This document shows positions 22,702-33,103 of a stretch of 33,103 bases of DNA, piece after piece. Each line of letters starts with the position of its first letter. Position 1 is the stretch's first letter. The notes beneath the pieces were generated by a model, which was not told where the DNA came from, made no database searches, and saw only the letters and a program-made list of their open reading frames with translations. Made by a program: the position numbers and the translations under genes. The stretch is taken from positions 1 through 33,103 of the IMG/VR virus record IMGVR_UViG_3300030098_002236; one strand, given 5' to 3'. The stretch comes from a virus (Duplodnaviria > Caudoviricetes).

Positions 22702-22941
22702 TTAAATCTCCTTTTTTACTTTATCAATTAAACTTTTTGCCTTTGCATTAACAGACTTAGCATCTTCTAACATTTCATTTGCACATAAGTTATACAGAAA
22801 TGCCTTGGTGACATTGTTGTTTTGATTATGATATTTAATAAAATATTGAAGTTGTTTTGCTTTGTTGATGCCAGTGTCTTTATGTATTTCGTCTAAAGTA
22901 TTCCACAATTGTCCATCAATCCAGATGTTGACGTATGCCAT
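22702..22941 (-). CDS. Putative ribbon-helix-helix regulator
   Basis: N-terminal VNIWID strand followed by helix-TG-INKA-helix; first gene after the promoter. Confidence 0.5.
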   Translation of the reverse strand: MAYVNIWIDGQLWNTLDEIHKDTGINKAKQLQYFIKYHNQNNNVTKAFLYNLCANEMLEDAKSVNAKAKSLIDKVKKEI

Positions 22942-22975: not shown

Positions 22976-23004
22976 ATGTTAAGATGATGTGTTGCATTTG
23001 TCAA
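22976..23004 (-). promoter_or_regulatory. Sigma70 promoter for the leftward recombination operon
   Basis: TTGACA-17-TAACAT. Confidence 0.7.
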
Positions 23005-23020
23005 TAAGATTATTTAGTAT
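22992..23020 (+). promoter_or_regulatory. Sigma70 promoter for the rightward replication genes (likely leaderless transcript)
   Basis: TTGCAT-17-TAGTAT with ATG 8 nt downstream and no RBS. Confidence 0.55.
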
Positions 23021-23028
23021 AGATAAAT

Positions 23029-23310
23029 ATGAATGAATCTACAAAAGAAGAAAAAAAATTAGATAGTTTGGTTTTAAAACAAGCAGTTAGAGATTTAGCT
23101 TCTAAGGATGTAGATTTATCCACTGGTGCAGAGGACTTCTTTTATTCAAAAGATTTTAAACAGCTATGTTTAAGGCTAGACATTGATATTGAAATCATGC
23201 GTAAAGCCATTAGGGAGTTAGTTGAATATCCAATTATATCTAAAAAGAAAATTGCTAATGATATAGCGAGAATGATAGATAAGAGTTTTATGCACTTAGA
23301 TAATTATTAG
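23029..23310 (+). CDS. Hypothetical protein
   Basis: 93 aa, V..QA..D...A..FF.S.DF..LC pattern, upstream of the primase-helicase. Confidence 0.7.
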   Translation: MNESTKEEKKLDSLVLKQAVRDLASKDVDLSTGAEDFFYSKDFKQLCLRLDIDIEIMRKAIRELVEYPIISKKKIANDIARMIDKSFMHLDNY

Positions 23311-23400
23311 TAGGTACATACTATATATATGTAATTACTAATTTTTTTTATTAGGTAACTACTAAAGTAGTTAATTATATACATAGTAAGGAGGTTAAAT

Positions 23401-25146
23401 ATGTATGTCAATCAAAAAGTAGAAAATTCAACAAGTGATTTGCCAATAGGACAACACAAAATTAGTTGTCCAGATTGTCAAGGCACTAGATCAAAAAACA
23501 AAAGAGACAAACCTTTATCTGTAAATATAGATTCAGATAGAGTTGTTTTTAATTGTCATCACTGTGGCAGTAACGGAGTTATATCAAAAAAGAGGAGTTT
23601 TAAAATGGAGGTCGTAAAAGAACCAGTCAAGAATGTAAAAGTTGTTAAGCCAAAGAAAGAAACAGAGGGAGAATCAGCTAAATGGTTGGCAGAAAGAGGT
23701 ATATGTTTGCAAACTGCAATCACATCTGGTTGCATCCCAGCTCAAAAGAAATATAAACCAGTCATAGGTTTTTCCTACCTTGACGAGGATGGCAAGGTCA
23801 TTGCTATGAAGTATCGCAGTGCAAATGGCGACAAGATGTTCTGGTGGGAGGGCAGTGAAAACAGATTGTGGGGTTTGAATCCAAAGAACAAAGCATTAAA
23901 AGACATTGAAGATACGATAGTCATTACAGAGGGAGAAATGGATTGTCTTGCTATCAAAACAGCTTTTAAAGACTATGCCAACATAGAGGTTTACTCAGTT
24001 CCCAATGGTGCACCAAGCAAAATAAACGATAACAAGATCGACCCAAGTGAAGATAACAAATTCAAATACATATGGGAAGATAGAGCCAAGTTTGAGAAAA
24101 CCAAAAGAATAATACTAGCAACAGACAATGATTCGGCAGGTGATGTACTGGCACATGAATTAGCTAGAAGATTAAACATAGCAAGATGCTATCGTATTGA
24201 TTACAAAGGACACAAAGACAGCAATGATGTCTTAATTGTTGAGGGTTCAGATGCATTAAGAAAACAAGTTCTTAATGCGAAACCAATACCTTTGCATGGA
24301 CTTAACAGCATTGACCACTATCAAGAAGAATTACAAAACCTTTATGAGCAAGGCAAACCTAGAGGTGTAACAACTGGGTTTCCAACAGTGGATGAGCTAT
24401 TCACTCTGGCTACAGGAAATTTATTTGTTGTAACTGGCTACCCTGGGGATGGCAAGTCAGCGTTTATTGACCAGTTAATAATCAATGTTGGTAGAACCTC
24501 TGGTTGGAAAACCTGTTACTGCTCTTTTGAAAAGCCACCAAGTCTCCATGCTGTACAACTCGCACAGGTACTAACTGGCAAACCATTCTTTGAGGGTCAG
24601 AATCCACGAATGAATCAAGAAGAGAAAGACTTTGCTGAATCATGGATTAGAGATCACATACTGTTTCAAGACTATCTTGGAGGAGAATTGCCTACAATAG
24701 AAGCAATCCTTGAAAAAGGTCAGTCAGCAGTTATGCGTTATGGCATTAGATGTTTAGTCATAGACCCTTACAACTTCATTCATAACGATAAGCACACTGG
24801 TCTAGAAACTGATATGGTCAGTGAAATGCTTACCAAAGTACAGCTTTTCGCCAAGCAACATGACGTATTGGTATTTTTTGTAGCACATCCAACAAAACCA
24901 TTTGTAAGAGACGGAAAAAAGAATGTCTGTACTGGTGTTGATATAGCTAAATCAATGGCATGGTTTAGTAAAGCAGACATGGGAATGACAGTCTATCGAG
25001 GTGATGAGGGAGTAGAGATTCATTGTTGGAAATGTCGTTGGGGTTGGAATGGTAGTTTAGGCAGTGTAAACTTAACTTTCAATCCTGTTAATAATCAGTA
25101 TGAACAAGCAGAAGTTATTGCAGACAACTACGACTGGGATTTCTAA
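23401..25146 (+). CDS. Bifunctional primase-helicase (T7 gp4/Twinkle-like)
   Basis: Zn finger CPDC..CHHC, TOPRIM ITEGEMD/SVPNGA/TDNDSAG, Walker A TGYPGDGKS, IDPYN, VAHP.K; AGGAGG RBS. Confidence 0.95.
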   Translation: MYVNQKVENSTSDLPIGQHKISCPDCQGTRSKNKRDKPLSVNIDSDRVVFNCHHCGSNGVISKKRSFKMEVVKEPVKNVKVVKPKKETEGESAKWLAERGICLQTAITSGCIPAQKKYKPVIGFSYLDEDGKVIAMKYRSANGDKMFWWEGSENRLWGLNPKNKALKDIEDTIVITEGEMDCLAIKTAFKDYANIEVYSVPNGAPSKINDNKIDPSEDNKFKYIWEDRAKFEKTKRIILATDNDSAGDVLAHELARRLNIARCYRIDYKGHKDSNDVLIVEGSDALRKQVLNAKPIPLHGLNSIDHYQEELQNLYEQGKPRGVTTGFPTVDELFTLATGNLFVVTGYPGDGKSAFIDQLIINVGRTSGWKTCYCSFEKPPSLHAVQLAQVLTGKPFFEGQNPRMNQEEKDFAESWIRDHILFQDYLGGELPTIEAILEKGQSAVMRYGIRCLVIDPYNFIHNDKHTGLETDMVSEMLTKVQLFAKQHDVLVFFVAHPTKPFVRDGKKNVCTGVDIAKSMAWFSKADMGMTVYRGDEGVEIHCWKCRWGWNGSLGSVNLTFNPVNNQYEQAEVIADNYDWDF

Positions 25147-25633
25147 TCTACAGTTAAACGAAATAGGTAATGCCTACTTACATAAACGTAATAAAGTAGG
25201 CATAGTTCCTATTAAAAAAAGTAGACAAGGTAGAGCCATTGTCTACGATCAACATATCATTGACAGACTGTATATCGACAGTCACATAAACGAACAACAA
25301 CACAACATACTAAATCAATATCTTTCAGTGATATCAAGGAGTGGTTGTTTTCCATCCTGCTTCCCAGACGCAAATAAAATATTTACTGGTCAATATCCAA
25401 ATTCGCCTCCAAAAGCAATCATACTCGTTGGTGTACAAAAGCATTTGGCAAAAGAGTTAGGTGTAAAAAATGAATCAAGATTATGGAAAATCTTTGTAGA
25501 TAACCCAAAGAAATTGGGTAAAAGGGATATTAAATTGGTTAATGCTTTAGCTGAAAGCCTTATGACTTATTGGTTCATTGGTCATCAAAATCCTGTTTCT
25601 TTGTTTCAACAAGCCCTGTCAAACCCCATTTAG
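25100..25633 (+). CDS. Hypothetical protein (start uncertain)
   Basis: 177-aa open frame following the helicase. Confidence 0.6.
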   Translation: MNKQKLLQTTTTGISNLQLNEIGNAYLHKRNKVGIVPIKKSRQGRAIVYDQHIIDRLYIDSHINEQQHNILNQYLSVISRSGCFPSCFPDANKIFTGQYPNSPPKAIILVGVQKHLAKELGVKNESRLWKIFVDNPKKLGKRDIKLVNALAESLMTYWFIGHQNPVSLFQQALSNPI

Positions 25634-25829
25634 GCTCAACAGGTGAAGTGTGGACTATCACTTCTTCTTTAGCAACATGGTCATCAACTGTTACATTTTT
25701 ATCATCAGCTAACGAATGAATCATGTGAATCATTTGTTTATTTAGTGATCTATTTTCTTTTTTTGCTAACGCATGAGCAAGTTTATATGTATCTTCTGAA
25801 CATCTAATGAATAGACTTTTGTGTGTCAT
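25575..25829 (-). CDS. Arc/Mnt-like ribbon-helix-helix repressor
   Basis: KSLFIRCSE..Y..A..LAKKENRSLNKQMIHMI matches the Arc 'RS.N..I' signature. Confidence 0.75.
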   Translation of the reverse strand: MTHKSLFIRCSEDTYKLAHALAKKENRSLNKQMIHMIHSLADDKNVTVDDHVAKEEVIVHTSPVEPKWGLTGLVETKKQDFDDQ

Positions 25830-26109
25830 CTTTCAAATCCTCGTAATCAATATTAATCGAACCCTCTACTTTACCTACAGCAACACTCTCTCTTCCAACC
25901 TGCCAAAACTTACCCTCTTTCAGAGTTTCTATGGCATGATCTAAATAGTGTTCATTCGCACCCAACAGAGGATGATCTAGTAAAGTAATAGCAAAGGACA
26001 TTGCATCTACTTCTGTATCAAACAACCAAACTAAATGTTTCCACTCTCCTACAGAGTTATATTTATCTCTTACATCTAATTCAAAGGTATGTCTAATAAC
26101 AGCAAACAT
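25804..26109 (-). CDS. Hypothetical protein (probably leaderless)
   Basis: 101 aa; TACAAT -10 element at 26116-26121 lies 6 nt upstream of the ATG. Confidence 0.65.
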   Translation of the reverse strand: MFAVIRHTFELDVRDKYNSVGEWKHLVWLFDTEVDAMSFAITLLDHPLLGANEHYLDHAIETLKEGKFWQVGRESVAVGKVEGSINIDYEDLKDDTQKSIH

Positions 26110-26162
26110 TAAATTATTGTAAGCGAAGTGCTATCAAAATGAAAGTAAATGTTCTACATAGA

Positions 26163-26210
26163 ACACAGTATATAGTGATTTTTTTGAACGGAAAACACAA
26201 GATGTTGGGG
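26163..26210. promoter_or_regulatory. Tandem NrdR-box-like sites
   Basis: ACACAGTATATAGTGA (26163-26178) and ACACAAGATGTTGGGG (26195-26210) against consensus acaCwAtATaTwGtgt; 32 bp apart. Confidence 0.6.
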
Positions 26211-26400
26211 ATCAGGTGCTACGCGTAAAAAGAATATTTACTAGTCTAAGGTTTTTCCAGAAGGATCGAAAATCAAAATATTTTTAAATCAGGAAACTGG
26301 GATGGTAAGTTTTACAAATACCAATACAAATAACAATACCAACACAAATACAAATTCTGTCTCAATCAATCGACTGTCTCTCGTTAATTTTTTTTAGACC

Positions 26401-26433
26401 AAAAAAAAGGGAAGATTTTTACATCTTCCCTTT
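26401..26433 (-). terminator. Intrinsic terminator
   Basis: GGGAAGAU-GUAAAA-AUCUUCCC followed by U8. Confidence 0.85.
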
Positions 26434-26504
26434 AGGTGTTAGGTTATTACTAACTTATTAACACAGTAGGAGGTTTTAATTACTATGTTAATCAAACATA
26501 CTTG
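26401..26504 (-). ncRNA. Predicted ~100-nt sRNA with an anti-Shine-Dalgarno loop
   Basis: Own promoter and terminator. 11-bp stem UUAACAUAGUA/UACUGUGUUAA with loop AUUAAAACCUCC; second hairpin GUUAG/CUAAC. Confidence 0.65.
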
Positions 26505-26509
26505 GTTTT

Positions 26510-26538
26510 AATATAGGTCAAAAGATTGCAAAACGCAA
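26510..26538 (-). promoter_or_regulatory. Sigma70 promoter of the predicted sRNA
   Basis: TTGCGT-17-TATATT. Confidence 0.6.
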
Positions 26539-26541
26539 TAG

Positions 26542-26583
26542 TTATCCACAATTTATTAACAACTTGTCCACAGGTTGTTTACA
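26542..26583 (+). promoter_or_regulatory. Array of four DnaA-box-like 9-mers at 11-bp period
   Basis: TTATCCACA (26542, perfect), TTATTAACA (26553), TTGTCCACA (26564), TTGTTTACA (26575). Confidence 0.65.
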
Positions 26584-26731
26584 TCCATATTTTTACCAGT
26601 AAATATTTATTTTGAGCTTTCCAAAACACGTTAGCGACTACTATCACCCAACTACCAACAATCAATATATACCAGTAAATATTTATACAATCAGGTGATC
26701 GGGCTTCTACCACTTTCTCTTTATTTTTGCC

Positions 26732-26770
26732 AAAAAAAAAGCGATAGCCACTAATTAAAGTAGCTATCGC
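26732..26770 (-). terminator. Intrinsic terminator of the early operon
   Basis: GCGAUAGCUACU-UUAAUU-AGUGGCUAUCGC followed by U9. Confidence 0.9.
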
Positions 26771-26990
26771 CCATGACAATTTCTTTTGTGAGTTTGTCAA
26801 ACGCACTGCTATTCGTTATTTATACCTGTTATTTATCGTTAGCATTTAATATTTATTTTGCTTGGTACTTGCACTCTAGCAACTGGCAAGTCTAGTTTTT
26901 GTTTTCAAGAGCCAAACTAACAGACTCATGCAATTTCAGTTATTTTATTTTATGTCGTATAACTGGACACAACGTTCAAGATCGACATTC
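26771..26990 (-). ncRNA. Putative structured RNA (3' trailer) with a pseudoknot and a module shared with the hammerhead insert
   Basis: Interleaved stems AUGUCG/CGACAU and CAGUUAU/AUAACUG; 22 nt at 26841-26862 are identical to 29923-29944. Confidence 0.5.
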
Positions 26991-26992
26991 AC

Positions 26993-27190
26993 TCAGCTAT
27001 TCTCTTCCATAAAAGAAGTTCTAGCATCATGATAAAAGGCAACTTGAACACCTTGATAAGTTCTAATATCAGCAACACTATCTAAACCAACTTTTTCTTG
27101 GTCAGATAATGTGCTAATAATCACCCAATCTTTATGTCCAAATTCCTCTTCGCAGTGGTCATCTATGATTTCAGTAATATCTCTGCTCAT
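26993..27190 (-). CDS. Small acidic hypothetical protein
   Basis: 65 aa, GAGGAG RBS, ATGA-coupled. Confidence 0.7.
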   Translation of the reverse strand: MSRDITEIIDDHCEEEFGHKDWVIISTLSDQEKVGLDSVADIRTYQGVQVAFYHDARTSFMEENS

Positions 27191-27393
27191 AATTTCAACT
27201 CCTCTTCATCAGACACACTGATTAATTCATAGTCTCCACCTTGAGATTTAATTTCCTCCCACTCTTTACTGGCATCATCAGAAAAATCGCCACTTAACAT
27301 TAAATTAACAGCATCTTCCTCAGATTCAGCGATTACCTCGCATCTCTCAGTAGTAGAAAAATCCATTTCAAATACATATCTTTTTATAGTCAT
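27187..27393 (-). CDS. Small acidic hypothetical protein ('V.AESEEDA' type)
   Basis: 68 aa, AGGAGG RBS. Confidence 0.75.
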   Translation of the reverse strand: MTIKRYVFEMDFSTTERCEVIAESEEDAVNLMLSGDFSDDASKEWEEIKSQGGDYELISVSDEEELKL

Positions 27394-27421
27394 AAAACCT
27401 CCTATTTTTTATGTATTTATT

Positions 27422-27488
27422 TAAGTTTCTGTTTCACCTATTTTTAGGCTCATCAGTGAAAAACACCCATTTTTCAGACAAAAACTCA
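27422..27488 (-). ncRNA. Hammerhead ribozyme, type III (HH1)
   Basis: UGAGUUUUUG-UC^UGAAAAA(UGGGUG)UUUUUCA-CUGAUGA-GCCUA(AAAA)UAGGU-GAAA-CAGAAACUUA; predicted cut between 27477 and 27476. Confidence 0.85.
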
Positions 27489-27585
27489 GATTTCGACCTC
27501 TCAGAATCCTCTCTCTTGCATTAAGACGATAAGGGTAAGGGTCTAGCATAGGCTAGATTACCCTACCCTTAAATCGAATCAGACG

Positions 27586-28851
27586 TTAGTGAAACTCAGA
27601 AACGTTGACGTATACGTTCTCCCCAAAAGGAAATTTAGGGTCATACTCATAACCATTATGAGTTATCGCCCAAATTACAGGAACGCTTGGCTCTACTTTT
27701 GCATCCACTTCGCCATAAGCATCTGTGAAATAAATAAAGGCACAAACTTCCTCAACATCATCTGAATAGTTATTAAAGAGATTAAAAGGAGGGTCAAAAT
27801 CTGTTCCTCCTCCACCTCTTACCTCTAGTTCAATATCATCACCCATTGAGAGATCAAATACATCCCACCATTCATCCTCGCTATTTTTTCTTACAGTAGT
27901 ATCGCAATAGCAAACTCTTACTTTATCAATGTTGCAAGATTCACATATTGCCTGTAATTCCTCAGAAAAAATGTTGAGTTCAAATTGTGAAACTGAACCA
28001 CTGGTATCAATGGCAACTGCAATTTCCCCACCCTCATTAGAACGTATCTTGCTAGGTAAATTAATACCCCTCCAAGAATGACGTTTATTCAGTCTTGACC
28101 ATGATTGATCTTTTAGGGTCATTGAAGTTAGTAAATCAGATAACAAGTCTCTCCAGTTAAGAGTTCCACCCTTAACAGCATCAACTCTTCCAGTCATTGA
28201 GGAAGTTCCACTCAGACTGGCGATCTTATCAGCGAAAAACACTTGCGATCTGATAGCATTAGACATTTCTTCCTTTTCAGATTCATTAAGAGGTTTACCC
28301 TCTTCGTTCACTGCATCCCATACCTCACCTACAAGTTTAGGTATGTTGGAATACTTATCATCACTTGATGATTGTGAATTGCTATCTGAATCATCAGAAT
28401 TGCCATTTGCACTATTGCACTCATCTATTGCTTGTTGCAAGGCATCATCATTAGTATCAAGTTCTCGATAGACTTGTTCAGCAGTCCACCCACGATACTT
28501 ATAATTAAATAATCCACCTTGAGGTAAATCCATGCCTAGATCAATTTTGATATAAGCATTGATTACATAATCAGTAGCTACATTCCATAGTTCGTGATTA
28601 CGTTTACCTCGTCTAAGTGGATGTTCCCATACAACGTGCATAGATTCATGGATGAGAACACACTCTATCTCTTTATCTGTTATCTCTTTAACAAACTTAG
28701 GATTCCAAAGTATCTCTTTTCCATTGGTAGCCATAGTGTCGCACTTATCAGTTTCTACTAATTCAAGATTAAGTAGCATTGATGCAATTCCTACATCATG
28801 TTTCATTAATCTTGCTCTTGCTTGTAAAACTCTATCAGTCATCTTTACCAC
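27586..28851 (-). CDS. DUF2201-type metallopeptidase + vWA domain protein
   Basis: TMATNG, HESMH (HExxH), WNVATDYVIN, MIDAS DTSGS, GGGGTDF, FTD. Confidence 0.92.
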   Translation of the reverse strand: MVKMTDRVLQARARLMKHDVGIASMLLNLELVETDKCDTMATNGKEILWNPKFVKEITDKEIECVLIHESMHVVWEHPLRRGKRNHELWNVATDYVINAYIKIDLGMDLPQGGLFNYKYRGWTAEQVYRELDTNDDALQQAIDECNSANGNSDDSDSNSQSSSDDKYSNIPKLVGEVWDAVNEEGKPLNESEKEEMSNAIRSQVFFADKIASLSGTSSMTGRVDAVKGGTLNWRDLLSDLLTSMTLKDQSWSRLNKRHSWRGINLPSKIRSNEGGEIAVAIDTSGSVSQFELNIFSEELQAICESCNIDKVRVCYCDTTVRKNSEDEWWDVFDLSMGDDIELEVRGGGGTDFDPPFNLFNNYSDDVEEVCAFIYFTDAYGEVDAKVEPSVPVIWAITHNGYEYDPKFPFGENVYVNVSEFH

Positions 28852-29803
28852 CTAGTTTTTTCATTAATCCACCTTTCAATGGGTCAATGGCTTTATCTAG
28901 ATCATCAGCAACTTTTTTACGTTTTGCATCTCCAATATCAGTCTCATCTCTAAGAGAATCAATACTGTTAATGGTAGACAAAACAGCTACTAGACTTTGG
29001 TGAGCATTAGCTATATCAATGTCATTGCCTAATACGTCTTGATTGACGTTAGGAATAACTTCAACTGCTTTTCGCAATTTATCGAAACTAGAATCTTTAA
29101 AGAATCCACCCTTTTTATTAGTAGGGTCATAAGATTTAAGTTTCTCTGATATATGCTCAACTTGTTCTACTAAAGCATCAACAGTAGTCTGAAATATTGT
29201 CTTAACATTTTTGCTAAGTCTCTTTTCAGCATCCTGTTCGATACGTTTTCGCAAGTCAGCAGATACGTTTAATCTGATATCGTTGCTATAGCTAGGTATT
29301 AAAGAAATCTCAAAATCAAATTTGAATTTATCTTTAATATCATCCACTGGTGGATAATCACCCATATTGAAAGCATGACCTAAAACTTCTTTAGCATCAA
29401 TAATCATATTAGGATAGTTCTTACAAAACTCATCAACTTCTTTAAAGAAGTCTTGCCTTGCTTGATCTACTGCCTTTTGCAAATTGTCTAATTGACTATT
29501 TGGGCATAATCTCCACCCACTTACGACCTTGTTATCATCATCCGAGGAATTATCATCCCAAGGCAAAGTCAGTGGATAGTAGCTATCATTTCGCACTTTG
29601 TTAATGATTCGTCTAAAGTATTTATTAGCATTGAATCCAACTAAATGCTTGGCAACGTGCAACAAAGATTCATCACTTGTATTAGTAATATCAGCTAAGT
29701 TATTACGAAGTGATTTATCAGTTTTAATGCCACTCCAAAACTTAGTAGTAAGTCTTACCAAAGTAGCATTTTCACTTAACGTATTAGTATTTTCATTTTT
29801 CAT
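28835..29803 (-). CDS. Helical protein, DUF3150-like
   Basis: 322 aa; K.L, TLPW.D..W.L, F..NYP, YP....I..KF pattern; lies between the ATPase and vWA genes. Confidence 0.6.
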   Translation of the reverse strand: MKNENTNTLSENATLVRLTTKFWSGIKTDKSLRNNLADITNTSDESLLHVAKHLVGFNANKYFRRIINKVRNDSYYPLTLPWDDNSSDDDNKVVSGWRLCPNSQLDNLQKAVDQARQDFFKEVDEFCKNYPNMIIDAKEVLGHAFNMGDYPPVDDIKDKFKFDFEISLIPSYSNDIRLNVSADLRKRIEQDAEKRLSKNVKTIFQTTVDALVEQVEHISEKLKSYDPTNKKGGFFKDSSFDKLRKAVEVIPNVNQDVLGNDIDIANAHQSLVAVLSTINSIDSLRDETDIGDAKRKKVADDLDKAIDPLKGGLMKKLGGKDD

Positions 29804-29858
29804 AAAACCTCCTAGAAAAATATATACTGGTTAATAATATTTCCTATCATTAGGAAAC

Positions 29859-30044
29859 ACCTAGACTGGAAAGTGTTTGTCAAAGTAGTACCTTGATATA
29901 AGACTATTCATTTATCTCGTTGAGCATTTAATATTTATTTTGCTCGTCTAACGCGGTTGTACTTAAATGGGAAACCCCTTCTCCCATATACCATAGACTT
30001 CTACTCTCCAGTTTCGCCTAAATTTCATAGGCTCATCAGTAGGT
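29859..30044 (-). ncRNA. Hammerhead ribozyme, type I, with a ~134-nt insert in stem III (HH2)
   Basis: ACCUA-CUGAUGA-GCCUA(UGAAAUU)UAGGC-GAAA-CUGGAGAGU...ACUUUCCAG-UC^UAGGU; predicted cut 29864/29863. Confidence 0.85.
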
Positions 30045-30045
30045 T

Positions 30046-31095
30046 TTAATACTCTAAGTCTTGATGCTCAACTTTAAATTTTGCATAGACTGAAGTATCA
30101 ATTAATTCACTTCTCCTAGTGATAGATTGTCTTACGAAAAACAAACTAAACTCTGGAGTAGCGAATTTCTGAACATAGGCAAGAGCATTTTCAAAATAAT
30201 CTACAACTAGAGATTTTTTTGCACTCTTGATTACATCCACTAAGGCAACAGCAGTGGCAAAACAAAGTCCTACTTTGTCAACGACTTCCACGTCTTTACC
30301 ACTTACTATGTCGCTTAGATTTGGAACATCATCCATTAGTGAAATGAAGTTAGTAAATTCAATTGCTTGTATTTCCCCAACATCACATTCAGCTATTTTC
30401 TGAATGAGTTCTTTAGGTGGATTGGTTTTTAATGTATCACTCAATCTCGACCATGCTCTAGGGCTTGGTTGAGGAGTAGTGATCTTGGCATCAAAATCAT
30501 TAAGAAATTGAGGTTGAAAGTTCAGATAACCTACTACCCTACTATCAACATCATTCTCAATTGCCCACTTATCCCAATCTTGAAAGTCATGCTCAAAATT
30601 AATTAATGAGCATCTTCCAATAACATGACTAGGAAGTTTGTTAGAACCAGCACGATCACTCGCCCTGTTTCCAGCACATATCATTTTCCACCCTTTAGGC
30701 AAAACGTATTCGCCTAAACGCTTTTCATAGATCAATTGACCTACCACAGCTTGAACGCTTGGATGTGCTTGGGCATACTCATCAAAAAATAAGACACCCT
30801 CGCCACTCTTGGGAAGATTACCTAAAAAGGCTCTCTTTTGTCCTCCCTCATCATCTATATAAGGAAGTCCACCAAGATCAACTGATTCATATAACGAAAG
30901 TCTAAAATCAATAAATCCAAACTCTTTTGACTTAGGATTAATGTTATCAACGACTATCTCTCTACTATCAGCTAACTCAGTAGCTAATTGCCTAACTACA
31001 GCAGATTTTCCAACACCTGTTCCACCTAGTAGAAAAGGCGTGTTTCCACCACCTAAAACAGATTTCATAATCTGTAATGCTTGACTTGGTTTCAT
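30046..31095 (-). CDS. MoxR-like AAA+ ATPase
   Basis: Walker A GGTGVGKS, Walker B LFFDE, AGNR, SPRAW. Start set at MKPSQ after the GGAGG RBS. Confidence 0.92.
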   Translation of the reverse strand: MKPSQALQIMKSVLGGGNTPFLLGGTGVGKSAVVRQLATELADSREIVVDNINPKSKEFGFIDFRLSLYESVDLGGLPYIDDEGGQKRAFLGNLPKSGEGVLFFDEYAQAHPSVQAVVGQLIYEKRLGEYVLPKGWKMICAGNRASDRAGSNKLPSHVIGRCSLINFEHDFQDWDKWAIENDVDSRVVGYLNFQPQFLNDFDAKITTPQPSPRAWSRLSDTLKTNPPKELIQKIAECDVGEIQAIEFTNFISLMDDVPNLSDIVSGKDVEVVDKVGLCFATAVALVDVIKSAKKSLVVDYFENALAYVQKFATPEFSLFFVRQSITRRSELIDTSVYAKFKVEHQDLEY

Positions 31096-31167
31096 AATAA
31101 TTCCCTCCATGAAACAAAGTTAGTAAAAAGATTTACCAGTCAATAAAAAATATTTTCCAGTAAATCC

Positions 31168-31231
31168 ACCTAGACTAGATCAAGTCTCCTTGATCTAGTT
31201 TCGCAAGAATCTCACTTGCTCGTCAGTAGGT
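31168..31231 (-). ncRNA. Hammerhead ribozyme, type I (HH3)
   Basis: ACCUA-CUGACGA-GCAAG(UGAGAUU)CUUGC-GAAA-CUAGAUCAAG(GAGA)CUUGAUCUAG-UC^UAGGU; predicted cut 31173/31172. Confidence 0.95.
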
Positions 31232-31573
31232 TTAGGTCAAAACATTAGAGATACGTTCCTCATTAGGATTCACCCAACGATCTCTAGACATAAGACCATT
31301 TTCTAAAACGTATTCTAGATGCTTAGTAGCATTATTAATGTTATTAAACATTCTTGCTCTATAACCACTCTCATCACATAAATAGCAGTCAAATTTTGTT
31401 AAAAAATAATAACTCCTATTTTCACCATACAACTCTTTAATTAAGTCATATACATTCCAAGAATAAATATAAACCTCAATTTCGTTATGTGGCTCGACTA
31501 TTCTTGTATTGTCTCTCCAAACTTTCCAGTCCTTAGAGACAACTTTTTTCTTAGACCATTTAATACTATTCAC
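31232..31573 (-). CDS. Hypothetical early protein (GTG start)
   Basis: 113 aa, GGAGG RBS, flanked by HH4 and HH3. Confidence 0.7.
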   Translation of the reverse strand: MNSIKWSKKKVVSKDWKVWRDNTRIVEPHNEIEVYIYSWNVYDLIKELYGENRSYYFLTKFDCYLCDESGYRARMFNNINNATKHLEYVLENGLMSRDRWVNPNEERISNVLT

Positions 31574-31599
31574 GAAATACCTCCCAGTATTTAATAATT

Positions 31600-31665
31600 A
31601 CCTAGACTAAACCCTAAATAATTAGGGTCTAGTTTCGCCAAAATTTCATTGGCTCGTCAGTAGGC
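31600..31665 (-). ncRNA. Hammerhead ribozyme, type I (HH4)
   Basis: GCCUA-CUGACGA-GCCAA(UGAAAUU)UUGGC-GAAA-CUAGACCCUAA(UUAU)UUAGGGUUUAG-UC^UAGGU; predicted cut 31605/31604. Confidence 0.95.
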
Positions 31666-32075
31666 TAAATTGCTAGGGCAACTGGCTCATCTAAAAATAG
31701 ATCATTCTCAATCTCTCGCAATATATAAACCTTGCTAGGGTCTATCTCTATGCAAGTAGTGTTTGACGAAATTAAAAGAGCATCCATGTAAAGGTATTGA
31801 TCTCCTTTAGATTGTTTCAAGTAAACTAAATCACTCTTAAACAGTTCACAAAATAAAGTGTTTAGTCTCTCTCTCGTTGTAACTGTTCCCCACCCACACA
31901 TAGAGAAACATAAGTGAATATTATTACTTAAATTTTCGCTAGGATGATTGTTCTCCCACCATGCAATTTTATTGTTATGCAGAAAAATCTCACCATTCTC
32001 GGTGTAAGTATTTCCCACAGTTTTTTTCTTATCATTAATAAACGCTTTCGCAATTTCTATAGATACTTTTCTCAT
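31665..32075 (-). CDS. Hypothetical early protein (MRKVSIEIAKAF...)
   Basis: Start reassigned to 32075 behind GGAGG, since the longer track start lies inside HH5. LHNNKIA..GWGTVTTRERLN pattern. Confidence 0.8.
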   Translation of the reverse strand: MRKVSIEIAKAFINDKKKTVGNTYTENGEIFLHNNKIAWWENNHPSENLSNNIHLCFSMCGWGTVTTRERLNTLFCELFKSDLVYLKQSKGDQYLYMDALLISSNTTCIEIDPSKVYILREIENDLFLDEPVALAI

Positions 32076-32083
32076 AAATAAAA

Positions 32084-32156
32084 CCTCCAAAGTTTTATGT
32101 TTCTTGAACCCCATTAGGGGATTCTCTTCAGCACGTTAGTTCGTGGACATAGGAGG
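32084..32156 (-). ncRNA. Variant hammerhead ribozyme, type III (HH5)
   Basis: CCUCC-UAUG-UC^CACG(AACUAA)CGUG-CUGAAGA-GAAUCCCC(UAAU)GGGGUUC-AA-GAAA-CAUA...GGAGG; extra AA before GAAA; predicted cut 32146/32145. Confidence 0.7.
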
Positions 32157-32183
32157 GAAATTAATCCCCCCTCTCTTTAAAAA

Positions 32184-32390
32184 TCAAATACAGACCTTAA
32201 CCACATTCTTTACAGATTCAGAATAGCTATCTTGTTCAATTGTTTCCCATTCGCATAAAGGTTCATTATCTTGGGCAATAACTTTCGCTTGTTCTTCGTT
32301 ATCAGCTTTCACTATTTTGAATACCTTATAAGTGTATTCTCCTTGTACTTTGTATCTACTCATCTTCGTTTGTTGATCTACTTTCATCAT
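32184..32390 (-). CDS. Small hypothetical protein ('VKADNEEQA' type)
   Basis: 68 aa, GGAGG RBS; first gene of the leftward operon. Confidence 0.75.
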   Translation of the reverse strand: MMKVDQQTKMSRYKVQGEYTYKVFKIVKADNEEQAKVIAQDNEPLCEWETIEQDSYSESVKNVVKVCI

Positions 32391-32394
32391 TCAT

Positions 32395-32467
32395 ACCTCC
32401 AAGTATGTTTCTTGAACCCCAAAATAGGATTCTCATTCAGCTTGTTAATTCAAGGACACATGGAGGT
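32395..32467 (-). ncRNA. Variant hammerhead ribozyme, type III (HH6)
   Basis: ACCUCCA-UGUG-UC^CUUG(AAUUAA)CAAG-CUGAAUGA-GAAUCCUA(UUU)UGGGGUUC-AA-GAAA-CAUA-CU-UGGAGGU; predicted cut 32455/32454. Confidence 0.65.
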
Positions 32468-32747
32468 TGTGTCAGTAGTTCTTACTTTTCCCTAGTTTGA
32501 TTTTTCAGCTATCGCTTACTGGTCAATGTTCAAGAGGAATTTCATACCCTTAAAGAATCTCAGAGAGATTCACCCACGCCCATTTGTTTTAAGTCAAGGT
32601 CTCGTTCCAACGACTACTGGCTTTATATTTCACCAATACAAGTATTTAAACAGATTACAGCATCATTGTCTAATCATATTTATCTATATATCTGATAGCT
32701 AAATGAGATCATTACCAAGAAGACAATAACCAGTTAATATTCAATCT

Positions 32748-33103
32748 ATGGAAAACGACAAAACAAAACCAAAACTCCAAGTAATAAAAGCAGATGATCT
32801 AACCATTAAGCAGAGGTCATTTGTTAATGAGATCGTTAAGGGCAAGTTAGGAAGTTATAAAGAGGTCTATGCGAAAGTCTATGACGTTGCTCTAACCAAA
32901 GGAGGGAACATTCCTAAGTGGGTAGAAGTGGAAGCATCTAAGTTAGTAGCTAACCCTAAGATAGCACTAAGCATACAAAAGGCTTTAGAGCGTAAAGAGG
33001 TCAGTTCAGTAGCATCTAGCCTTAGAACTAGGAACTATGTCATAGAACAGTTATATAAAGAGTCCAGAGAGTCTGATAGTGATTCAGCTAGGATTAGAGC
33101 ATT
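32748..33103 (+). CDS. terS: Terminase small subunit, 3'-truncated; not in ORF track
   Basis: Translated by hand: MENDKTKP...LTIKQRSFV...ASKLVANPKI...DSARIRA, open to the window end. Confidence 0.75.
   Translation, partial: MENDKTKPKLQVIKADDLTIKQRSFVNEIVKGKLGSYKEVYAKVYDVALTKGGNIPKWVEVEASKLVANPKIALSIQKALERKEVSSVASSLRTRNYVIEQLYKESRESDSDSARIRA

Follow-up and report, generated by a model that had tools for sequence, protein, structure and literature searches.

Genomic context of the predicted sRNA gene

The window, i.e. the whole stretch of 33,103 nt analysed here, is a 33-kb virus record. Its structural genes are encoded on the plus strand, its middle part holds genes for replication and recombination, and a primase-helicase gene is located at 23401; a minus-strand operon extends from ~32400 to 27000 and adjoins a weak small-terminase match. 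The operon (27430..32440, minus strand), presumed to be early from its position, encodes AAA ATPase, DUF3150 and DUF2201 proteins and ends in a terminator at 26772-26739. Some 200 nt beyond this terminator, likewise on the minus strand, lies the gene of a predicted sRNA of ~103 nt (26401..26503, minus strand), to which both the z-score of the fold and syntenic homologues across 23 clades point. The sRNA gene is intergenic, overlaps no conserved gene and is located 0.9-6 kb away from its predicted targets, and the ORFs flanking it matched no PHROG or Pfam family. Two further features were observed in this region, a long hairpin with a non-coding stretch (27490-27610) between the DUF2201 gene and a hammerhead-type core at 27456, and a low-complexity ACCAAT/ACAAAT repeat (26313-26355), which draws unrelated contigs when reads or contigs are aligned.

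Searches of five near-complete relatives (96-100% estimated completeness) for tyrosine integrase, serine recombinase and S24 repressor (PF00589, PF07508, PF00717) gave no hit in any of them, which leaves the lysogeny switch considered in an earlier note unsupported in its classical form; the RNA would instead time lytic growth or hold back a genome that is not integrated. A class I/II reductase (PF02867) was likewise not found in these five relatives. Concerning the host, a search of the genome contigs gave no match and the search for AAA ATPase homologues returned no host clue; the DUF3150 gene had no relative among GenBank phages, and the primase matches at only ~33%.

Architecture and predicted fold of the sRNA

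The sRNA gene is preceded by a sigma-70-type promoter (26510..26538, minus strand), identified by sequence and conservation, with TTGCGT at 26538-26533, a 17-nt spacer and TATATT at 26515-26510; this is the promoter described in the earlier note, and our consensus promoter scan did not list it. The predicted start lies 7 nt past the -10 box. The fold of 26401-26510 reaches -29.4 kcal/mol (z -5.7), and none of 200 shuffles was as good. Hairpin 1 (26457..26492, minus strand) is predicted from the fold and clade-specific; its loop AUUAAAACCUCC agrees with the earlier description, whereas the stem comprises 12 pairs and not 11. The loop (26480-26469), together with the first stem bases, makes up the putative anti-Shine-Dalgarno seed (26467..26480, minus strand) with an unpaired probability of ~0.9-1.0, the last two of the 12 target-complementary bases being in stem 1, outside the loop. 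Between the clade of the window and the loci L011, L134 and L135, two double-sided changes are found in hairpin 1 (registered by hand), and no structure covariation was detected on a 6-sequence MAFFT alignment.

A second, 5-bp hairpin and a U8 terminator are both present, as had been noted before. Hairpin 2 (26438..26454, minus strand), assigned by fold and motif count, carries the second recurrent motif AGUUAG, and 27 of 74 family members have AGTTAG no more than 40 nt past the seed (shuffled mean 1.9, maximum 7). The AGUUAG at 26444-26456 (minus strand) might be a protein-binding site. The intrinsic terminator (26401..26433, minus strand) consists, by sequence and fold, of an 11-bp stem followed by U8, and the identity of the relatives L001 and L002 with the window ends directly after this U tract. 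In L006 (9150-9440), as well as in L001 and L002, the sRNA terminator is directly followed by an inserted 72-codon gene that has an RBS of its own. On its own strand, the sRNA in the window contains only a 3-codon AUG frame without RBS. Contigs from seven metatranscriptome runs (X1, X4, X5, X6, X7, X8 and X12, of 12 RNA or possibly-RNA runs) touch the flanks and not 26388-26509, where assembled contigs cannot show absence; contigs of run X13, which is of unspecified type, cover 26388-26509.

Conservation of the unit in related phages

Searches with the neighbouring proteins yielded 161 loci with the downstream anchor gene, the window included, of which 121 contain a total of 77 distinct units, the source of the sets of 74, 71, 66, 52 and 23 distinct members used here. 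L199 and L202 (wrong CCTCC chosen) and L154 (incomplete) were dropped before counting, and L200 (in the gene tests) as well as loci with too little upstream sequence were also left out; L020 was rejected as a chance pattern match. The interval between the DUF2201 gene and the anchor is fully covered in 105 loci, 91 of which have CCTCC with a terminator after it, and CCUCC with a terminator is present in 73 out of 85 distinct syntenic intervals of related phages. For comparison, seven control 5-mers gave 0-7 in these 85 intervals; the control GGTGG in 23, GGAGG in 43 and an opposite-strand CCTCC in 38 of them count against the sRNA reading. A promoter-like site, mostly of the TTGC(A/G) type, is located upstream of the seed in 63 out of 71 distinct homologues (shuffled mean 9.5, maximum 19).

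The CCUCC is the sole invariant block in the 74 distinct members, by selection of the set, and its flanks are AU-rich. Predicted lengths range from 62 to 174 nt (median 92), with the usual layout of hairpin, open seed, hairpin and terminator. In 66 predicted transcripts the seed lies in a loop (9), in a linker (35) or is partly paired (22), and it is predicted to be open (0.7 or more) in 46 of the 66. The loop itself is not conserved in relatives: the seed-in-loop arrangement that the earlier note had drawn from the window is confined to its clade and one other, the linker being the commonest position. Promoter, seed and terminator, on the other hand, are kept across 23 clades while lengths and stems change, which argues against the locus being a non-functional terminator region of the early operon with a chance or copied anti-Shine-Dalgarno sequence. 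AT-rich DNA does fold easily, as that explanation would have it, yet the operon already ends in a terminator of its own, and we regard a non-functional locus as extremely improbable.

Rfam searches gave no gathering-score match to the sRNA in the window, eight loci and seven genome stretches, the best overlap being sraA (E 3.5; 23.6 bits, cut-off 56), which mostly covers the terminator. A literature search of open main texts returned no publication on this phage sRNA family. Judged by this comparative sequence evidence, the units represent a real, hitherto undescribed sRNA family of a large group of uncultured marine phages.

The reverse complement of the seed requires consideration, as GGAGG could be the RBS of a minigene on the opposite strand (MLIKHTWF in the window), or the RNA could be a type I antitoxin. 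An opposite-strand ATG does follow GGAGG at 3-13 nt in 43 of 74 members, then AA in 27, and CAT stands 5-12 nt before CCTCC in 38 of 74 members compared to 11 in shuffles; moreover, an RBS would likewise follow the RBS style of its phage. However, the ATG is absent in 31 of 74 members, including the close relatives L011 and L134, and the ORFs have 2-102 codons (median 11; 6, 8 or 10 in the clade of the window) with no common peptide, so that the 8-codon ORF weighed in the earlier note against the sRNA is not conserved in relatives. In addition, the polarity of promoter and U tract is conserved on the other strand, and no conserved small hydrophobic toxin ORF was found on the opposite strand. 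The minigene or antitoxin explanation is thus left with a very small probability. The ATG excess could possibly stem from inverted copying of a gene start; an anti-AUG pairing in register was not supported, as the spacing of the opposite-strand ATG does not fit the cognate targets (p 0.80).

DnaA-type and NrdR-type boxes at the sRNA promoter

The promoter region holds features that went unnoticed in the earlier note, phased DnaA-type or tandem NrdR-type boxes being present in 54 out of 71 members. In the window, three DnaA-type boxes of the same orientation and 2 bp apart (26542..26572) were found by sequence, one perfect (26542-26550), one with two mismatches (26553-26561) and one with a single mismatch (26564-26572), the nearest lying 3 nt from the -35 box; they were scored against the 9-mer consensus of DnaA boxes. 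E. coli DnaA prefers boxes 2-3 bp apart (PMC11317965). Across the family, such boxes occur in 44/71 upstream regions, compared to 2/71 downstream regions and 3/168 coding windows, and in 52 distinct promoters they end 3 (21), 14-15 (24) and 25-26 (26) nt upstream of the -35 box. An ORF over these boxes (26579-26806) is probably spurious, with a 1-nt gap in L003. The -35 box itself sits in an ATTGC-N5-GCAAT palindrome (26519-26539), and ATTGC-N4/5-GCAAT is found in most family members; a similar palindrome, TTGCATTTGTCAAT, was observed at about 22990-23010 between the divergent ORFs 22941 and 23029.

NrdR boxes have the consensus acaCwAtATaTwGtg (PMC4009431) and occur in tandem, 31-32 bp apart (PMC2892513), and a tandem matching this consensus and spacing (26163..26210, 32 bp apart) lies in the window downstream of the sRNA, in front of the conserved ORF 26109. 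In 14 relatives without DnaA-type boxes, tandem NrdR-type boxes are instead located directly upstream of the sRNA promoter. Altogether 30 NrdR-type tandems were found, spaced by 31 (8) or 32 (22), while only 1 of 1420 shuffles gave a tandem; 20 of 71 members have one within 200 nt upstream of the seed, and in 13 cases the second box ends 2-9 nt before TTGC. Within these 200 nt, 34 of the 71 members carry DnaA-type boxes only, 14 NrdR-type boxes only, 6 both and 17 neither. Both box geometries are shared with nrd promoters under DnaA and NrdR control, from which the present arrangement differs in that the boxes precede a phage sRNA and that PF02867 is lacking in the five relatives searched. Tandem NrdR-type boxes in a phage clade in which the five near-complete relatives yielded no reductase may reflect phage use of a host dNTP sensor.

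A dispersed motif, ACYRGTAAATATT or ACYRGT(A/T)AATATT, is found within 400 nt of the sRNA in 60 of 71 members and occurs at about 15 mostly intergenic sites of the window (motif search: 15888, 17335, 17384, 23762, 24470, 25390, 26245, 26595, 26671, 29826, 31140-31161, 32729); it is likely an operator for a phage regulator. A candidate binder is the 84-aa protein encoded at 25575-25829 (minus strand), with Arc/ribbon-helix-helix look-alikes in Atlas (score 0.93) and no match for ORF 25829 in a PDB sequence search; ORF 22702-22941 resembles this Arc-like protein by eye.

Both the DnaA-type boxes in 44 of 71 members and the proximity of ACYRGTAAATATT in 60 would also suit a unit that belongs to a DnaA-dependent replication origin as primer, activating transcript or copy-number RNA, and lambda pO/OOP sits by its origin. 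Against this, the fixed distance of the boxes from the -35 box and their replacement by NrdR-type boxes in 14 members fit transcription control, the motif is spread over the window, GC skew follows gene direction only, and the co-variation of the seed described below would be left unexplained. We therefore hold a role in an origin to be quite improbable.

Predicted targets of the seed

As the earlier note had it, the 12-nt sequence TAGGAGGTTTTA is present exactly at 27393-27404 and 29803-29814 (both minus strand), where it covers the RBS of a 68-aa ORF and of a DUF3150-like gene, respectively, both predicted targets by exact 12-nt complementarity. A one-mismatch copy lies at 32079-32090, and the partial complement proposed for the RBS of ORF 32075 was confirmed as a 10-nt match (32079..32088, minus strand; predicted target). 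For the primase-helicase, the match is stronger than the partial complement claimed, since 8+7 pairs form around a bulge over the RBS of its predicted target region (translation start, 23381..23421, plus strand), with a seed duplex of -21.2 kcal/mol that is the best of 44 start regions scored in the window (including a few alternative starts) and -30.3 with the 5' half of the sRNA. The ranking among these 44 is primase-helicase, 29803, 27393, 32075 and 32390. Including opening costs, the extended sRNA-target duplexes net only -3 to -7 kcal/mol.

Sites of TAGGAGGTTTTA with at most two mismatches number 10 (expected, 5.2), a count attained by 1 of 100 shuffles. Considering that the window has 36 GGAGG sites, each with a probability of ~0.0004 for seven matching flank bases, it is unlikely that two exact 12-nt complements at gene starts arise by composition alone; as the flanks of RBSs are themselves non-random, we rely on the comparative tests here. 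The first codons of the primase-helicase gene are predicted to add 15 pairs with the sRNA in the window, a pairing of the 5' block that is also strong in a few lineages (L165, L151, L129, L091) and was rejected as a family-wide trait (8 better, 8 worse). The primase leader shares ACAUAGUA with the 5' stem arm of the sRNA and, we infer, could pair with the loop and then displace the arm. The palindrome-rich, AT-rich stretch at 23310-23400 upstream of the primase-helicase gene is kept in relatives, with AGTAAGTATATAC just before the RBS.

Co-variation of the seed with the RBSs of each phage

When the seeds of 52 phages were paired with their own and with foreign targets, the mean contiguous match was 7.36 nt for cognate and 6.65 nt for non-cognate pairs (0/5000 permutations), and per gene the cognate pairings were stronger for the primase (-15.1 vs -12.4 kcal/mol), AAA (-16.2 vs -13.9) and DUF3150 (-15.2 vs -13.2). 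Five out of six genes mostly without GGAGG gave no cognate effect; o23029, which lacks GGAGG, does show it in the raw test (p 0.0007), which counts against our reading, as does the VWA gene with GGAGG in 81% of members and no effect. As relatives are not independent, a FastTree tree (85 rows) with path-independent pairs was used. On these independent pairs the sign tests of single genes were not significant (primase 9:4, AAA 7:4, DUF3150 8:3, VWA 6:5); pooled over all GGAGG starts, the cognate was favoured in 16 of 19 pairs (sign p 0.002), and with pairs limited to changes nearer the core in 9 of 11 (within 2 nt) and then 5 of 5, the pooled and narrowed tests having been chosen after the single-gene ones. 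For the primase, 9 of 11 pairs limited to changes within 2 nt of the core were better and 1 worse. With one member per clade, the phage's own primase took rank 1 among 23 in 8 of the 23 clades (~1 expected). Cognates were also favoured for AAA and DUF3150 (0/5000 permutations), but not for VWA, the exonuclease and ORF 25829, with a borderline result for ORF 26109 (p 0.05).

Directly before GGAGG, 258 of the 371 starts in the upstream operon have a U, and 128 out of 203 starts elsewhere have an A. Within the operon this base switches together with the sRNA: it is U in 231 of 300 starts if the sRNA is complementary to U, and A in 30 of 51 starts if the sRNA is complementary to A. In five of six whole or large genomes, operon starts pair better with the sRNA than the rest (p < 0.01), G002 being the exception (p 0.23), and this is because perfect GGAGG is concentrated in the operon (in G001, 8 of 11 operon starts vs 10 of 60 others). 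Rare seeds find their counterpart at the primase start of the same phage, namely GCGGAG in L061/L171 and GGAGGAGTT in L092. Mismatched clades exist as well, e.g., L103/L106/L110, whose seeds pair with GGAGGU and whose AAA sites read GGAGGA, and the primase start lacks GGAGG in L055, L063, L157 and L089. Repeated inverted copying of an RBS could also produce such co-variation.

These data bear on the possibility that the sRNA mainly silences host mRNAs with a strong Shine-Dalgarno sequence, the phage matches being incidental. The invariant core is a universal anti-Shine-Dalgarno, a host-type promoter would fire on entry into the cell in phages whose five searched relatives carry no integrase, and the CCUCCU seed in the clade of the window is compatible with canonical AGGAGG sites. 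Nevertheless, the seed flanks follow the sites of the carrier phage, CCUCC is followed in 57 of 74 seeds by an A that fits the UGGAGG of the operon rather than AGGAGG, and perfect GGAGG is enriched in the phage operon itself, which would be struck first. Silencing of the host as the main role is consequently unlikely in our judgement. The proposal of the earlier note, a trans-acting repressor of early phage genes, agrees with the stand-alone unit and the RBS-matched seed, with the amendment that the primase-helicase is at least an equal target.

Hammerhead-type cores in the upstream operon

A motif scan located six hammerhead-type cores on the minus strand of the operon (32440, 32131, 31660, 31226, 30039, 27456). 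None of them reaches the Rfam gathering score, Hammerhead_3 matching 30006-30095 below it with E 1.2e-5. The hammerhead-like fold before ORF 32390 (32390..32470, minus strand; motif scan and fold) has a closing stem that pairs a cis ACCUCCA with the RBS of this ORF, and a similar CCUCC is paired with the downstream RBS at the 32131 core by eye, so that cleavage at both cores (32440, 32131) would unmask the RBS. Predicted cleavage would free these sites, and the sRNA could supply the same CCUCC sequence in trans. The first 10 nt of the sRNA are complementary to 32401-32410 of the ORF 32390 leader. That the 32440 hammerhead cleaves the sRNA in trans was rejected, as by eye stem I cannot form. 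Multiple hammerheads flanking single genes are described for prophage polycistrons, and three bacterial examples cleave in vitro (PMC3088659). The operon 27430..32440 has the same layout and differs from those polycistrons in the sRNA that accompanies it and the RBS within a ribozyme stem, neither of which is mentioned in the accessible text of that paper.

Discussion

By prediction, the element has the attributes of a trans-encoded sRNA, with its own promoter and terminator, no conserved ORF and an exposed, co-varying seed. Likenesses to known small RNAs exist. The C4 RNA of P1 and P7, to which the P4 CI RNA is related, is a small RNA encoded by a phage, too, and silences genes of that phage by base pairing; its seed and target differ together between P1 and P7, setting immunity. 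Without C4, the icd-ant operon is not fully repressed (PMC8198154). In contrast to C4, we find a stand-alone gene with its own terminator and a seed aimed at the Shine-Dalgarno sequence itself, many dispersed predicted targets including the primase-helicase, and neither repressor nor integrase in the five relatives; the C4 Rfam model gave no match up to E 5 in 26000-33103. P22 sar and lambda OOP are short phage RNAs as well, each transcribed from a promoter of its own, and dampen regulators of the phage, yet they are cis-encoded and antisense to one mRNA each, whereas here short matches to distant sites are found and the sRNA does not overlap a target on the opposite strand. Sar blocks translation initiation of ant (PMC12197685), and the phage sRNAs in the accessible text of that source, whose Table S1 comprises 38 sRNAs, act on one phage mRNA or on host genes. 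The Arc-like gene two ORFs downstream of the sRNA recalls the sar context and is a lead only. Trans-acting sRNAs with C-rich seeds are also known from bacteria, such as CyaR, which protects the SD region of ompX (10.1101/2024.10.08.617194), and mycobacterial 6C, which binds many mRNAs including dnaB via C-rich loops without chaperones (PMC6486639). These are host-encoded and aimed at host mRNAs, unlike the present seed, which co-varies with the carrier phage's own sites, and the CyaR and 6C Rfam models did not match the sRNA of the window.

Taken together, the element is probably the gene of a conserved phage sRNA whose CCUCC seed blocks translation of the phage's own operon and of the primase-helicase as a group, a reading that rests on sequence comparison. 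Host RNA polymerase would transcribe the predicted sRNA from the sigma-70-type promoter, and the exposed seed would pair with the GGAGG RBSs of the presumed early operon and the primase-helicase mRNA, blocking their translation jointly. We infer that host DnaA or NrdR may set the sRNA level, which would tie the output of phage early and replication genes to the replication or dNTP state of the host; the sRNA would either time the lytic cycle or keep a non-integrated genome waiting. A further-reaching version, a host-replication checkpoint in a widespread marine clade devoid of integrase and classical repressor, is possible and rather doubtful: here the DnaA/NrdR-set sRNA would re-mask ribozyme-unmasked RBSs and block the primase-helicase, so that the phage waits while its host is short of dNTPs or not replicating, and the joint drift of seed and RBS would lead to clade-specific immunity.

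In conclusion, the targets of this sRNA family appear to be an entire class of mRNAs of the carrier phage, reached via their RBSs, while the rest of the phage genome would escape through weaker RBSs. With more than 70 seed/target variants found in nature, the proposed pairing can be tested directly, and a promoter that swaps between two host replication sensors offers a testable way in which non-integrating phages of slow-growing marine bacteria could delay lysis.
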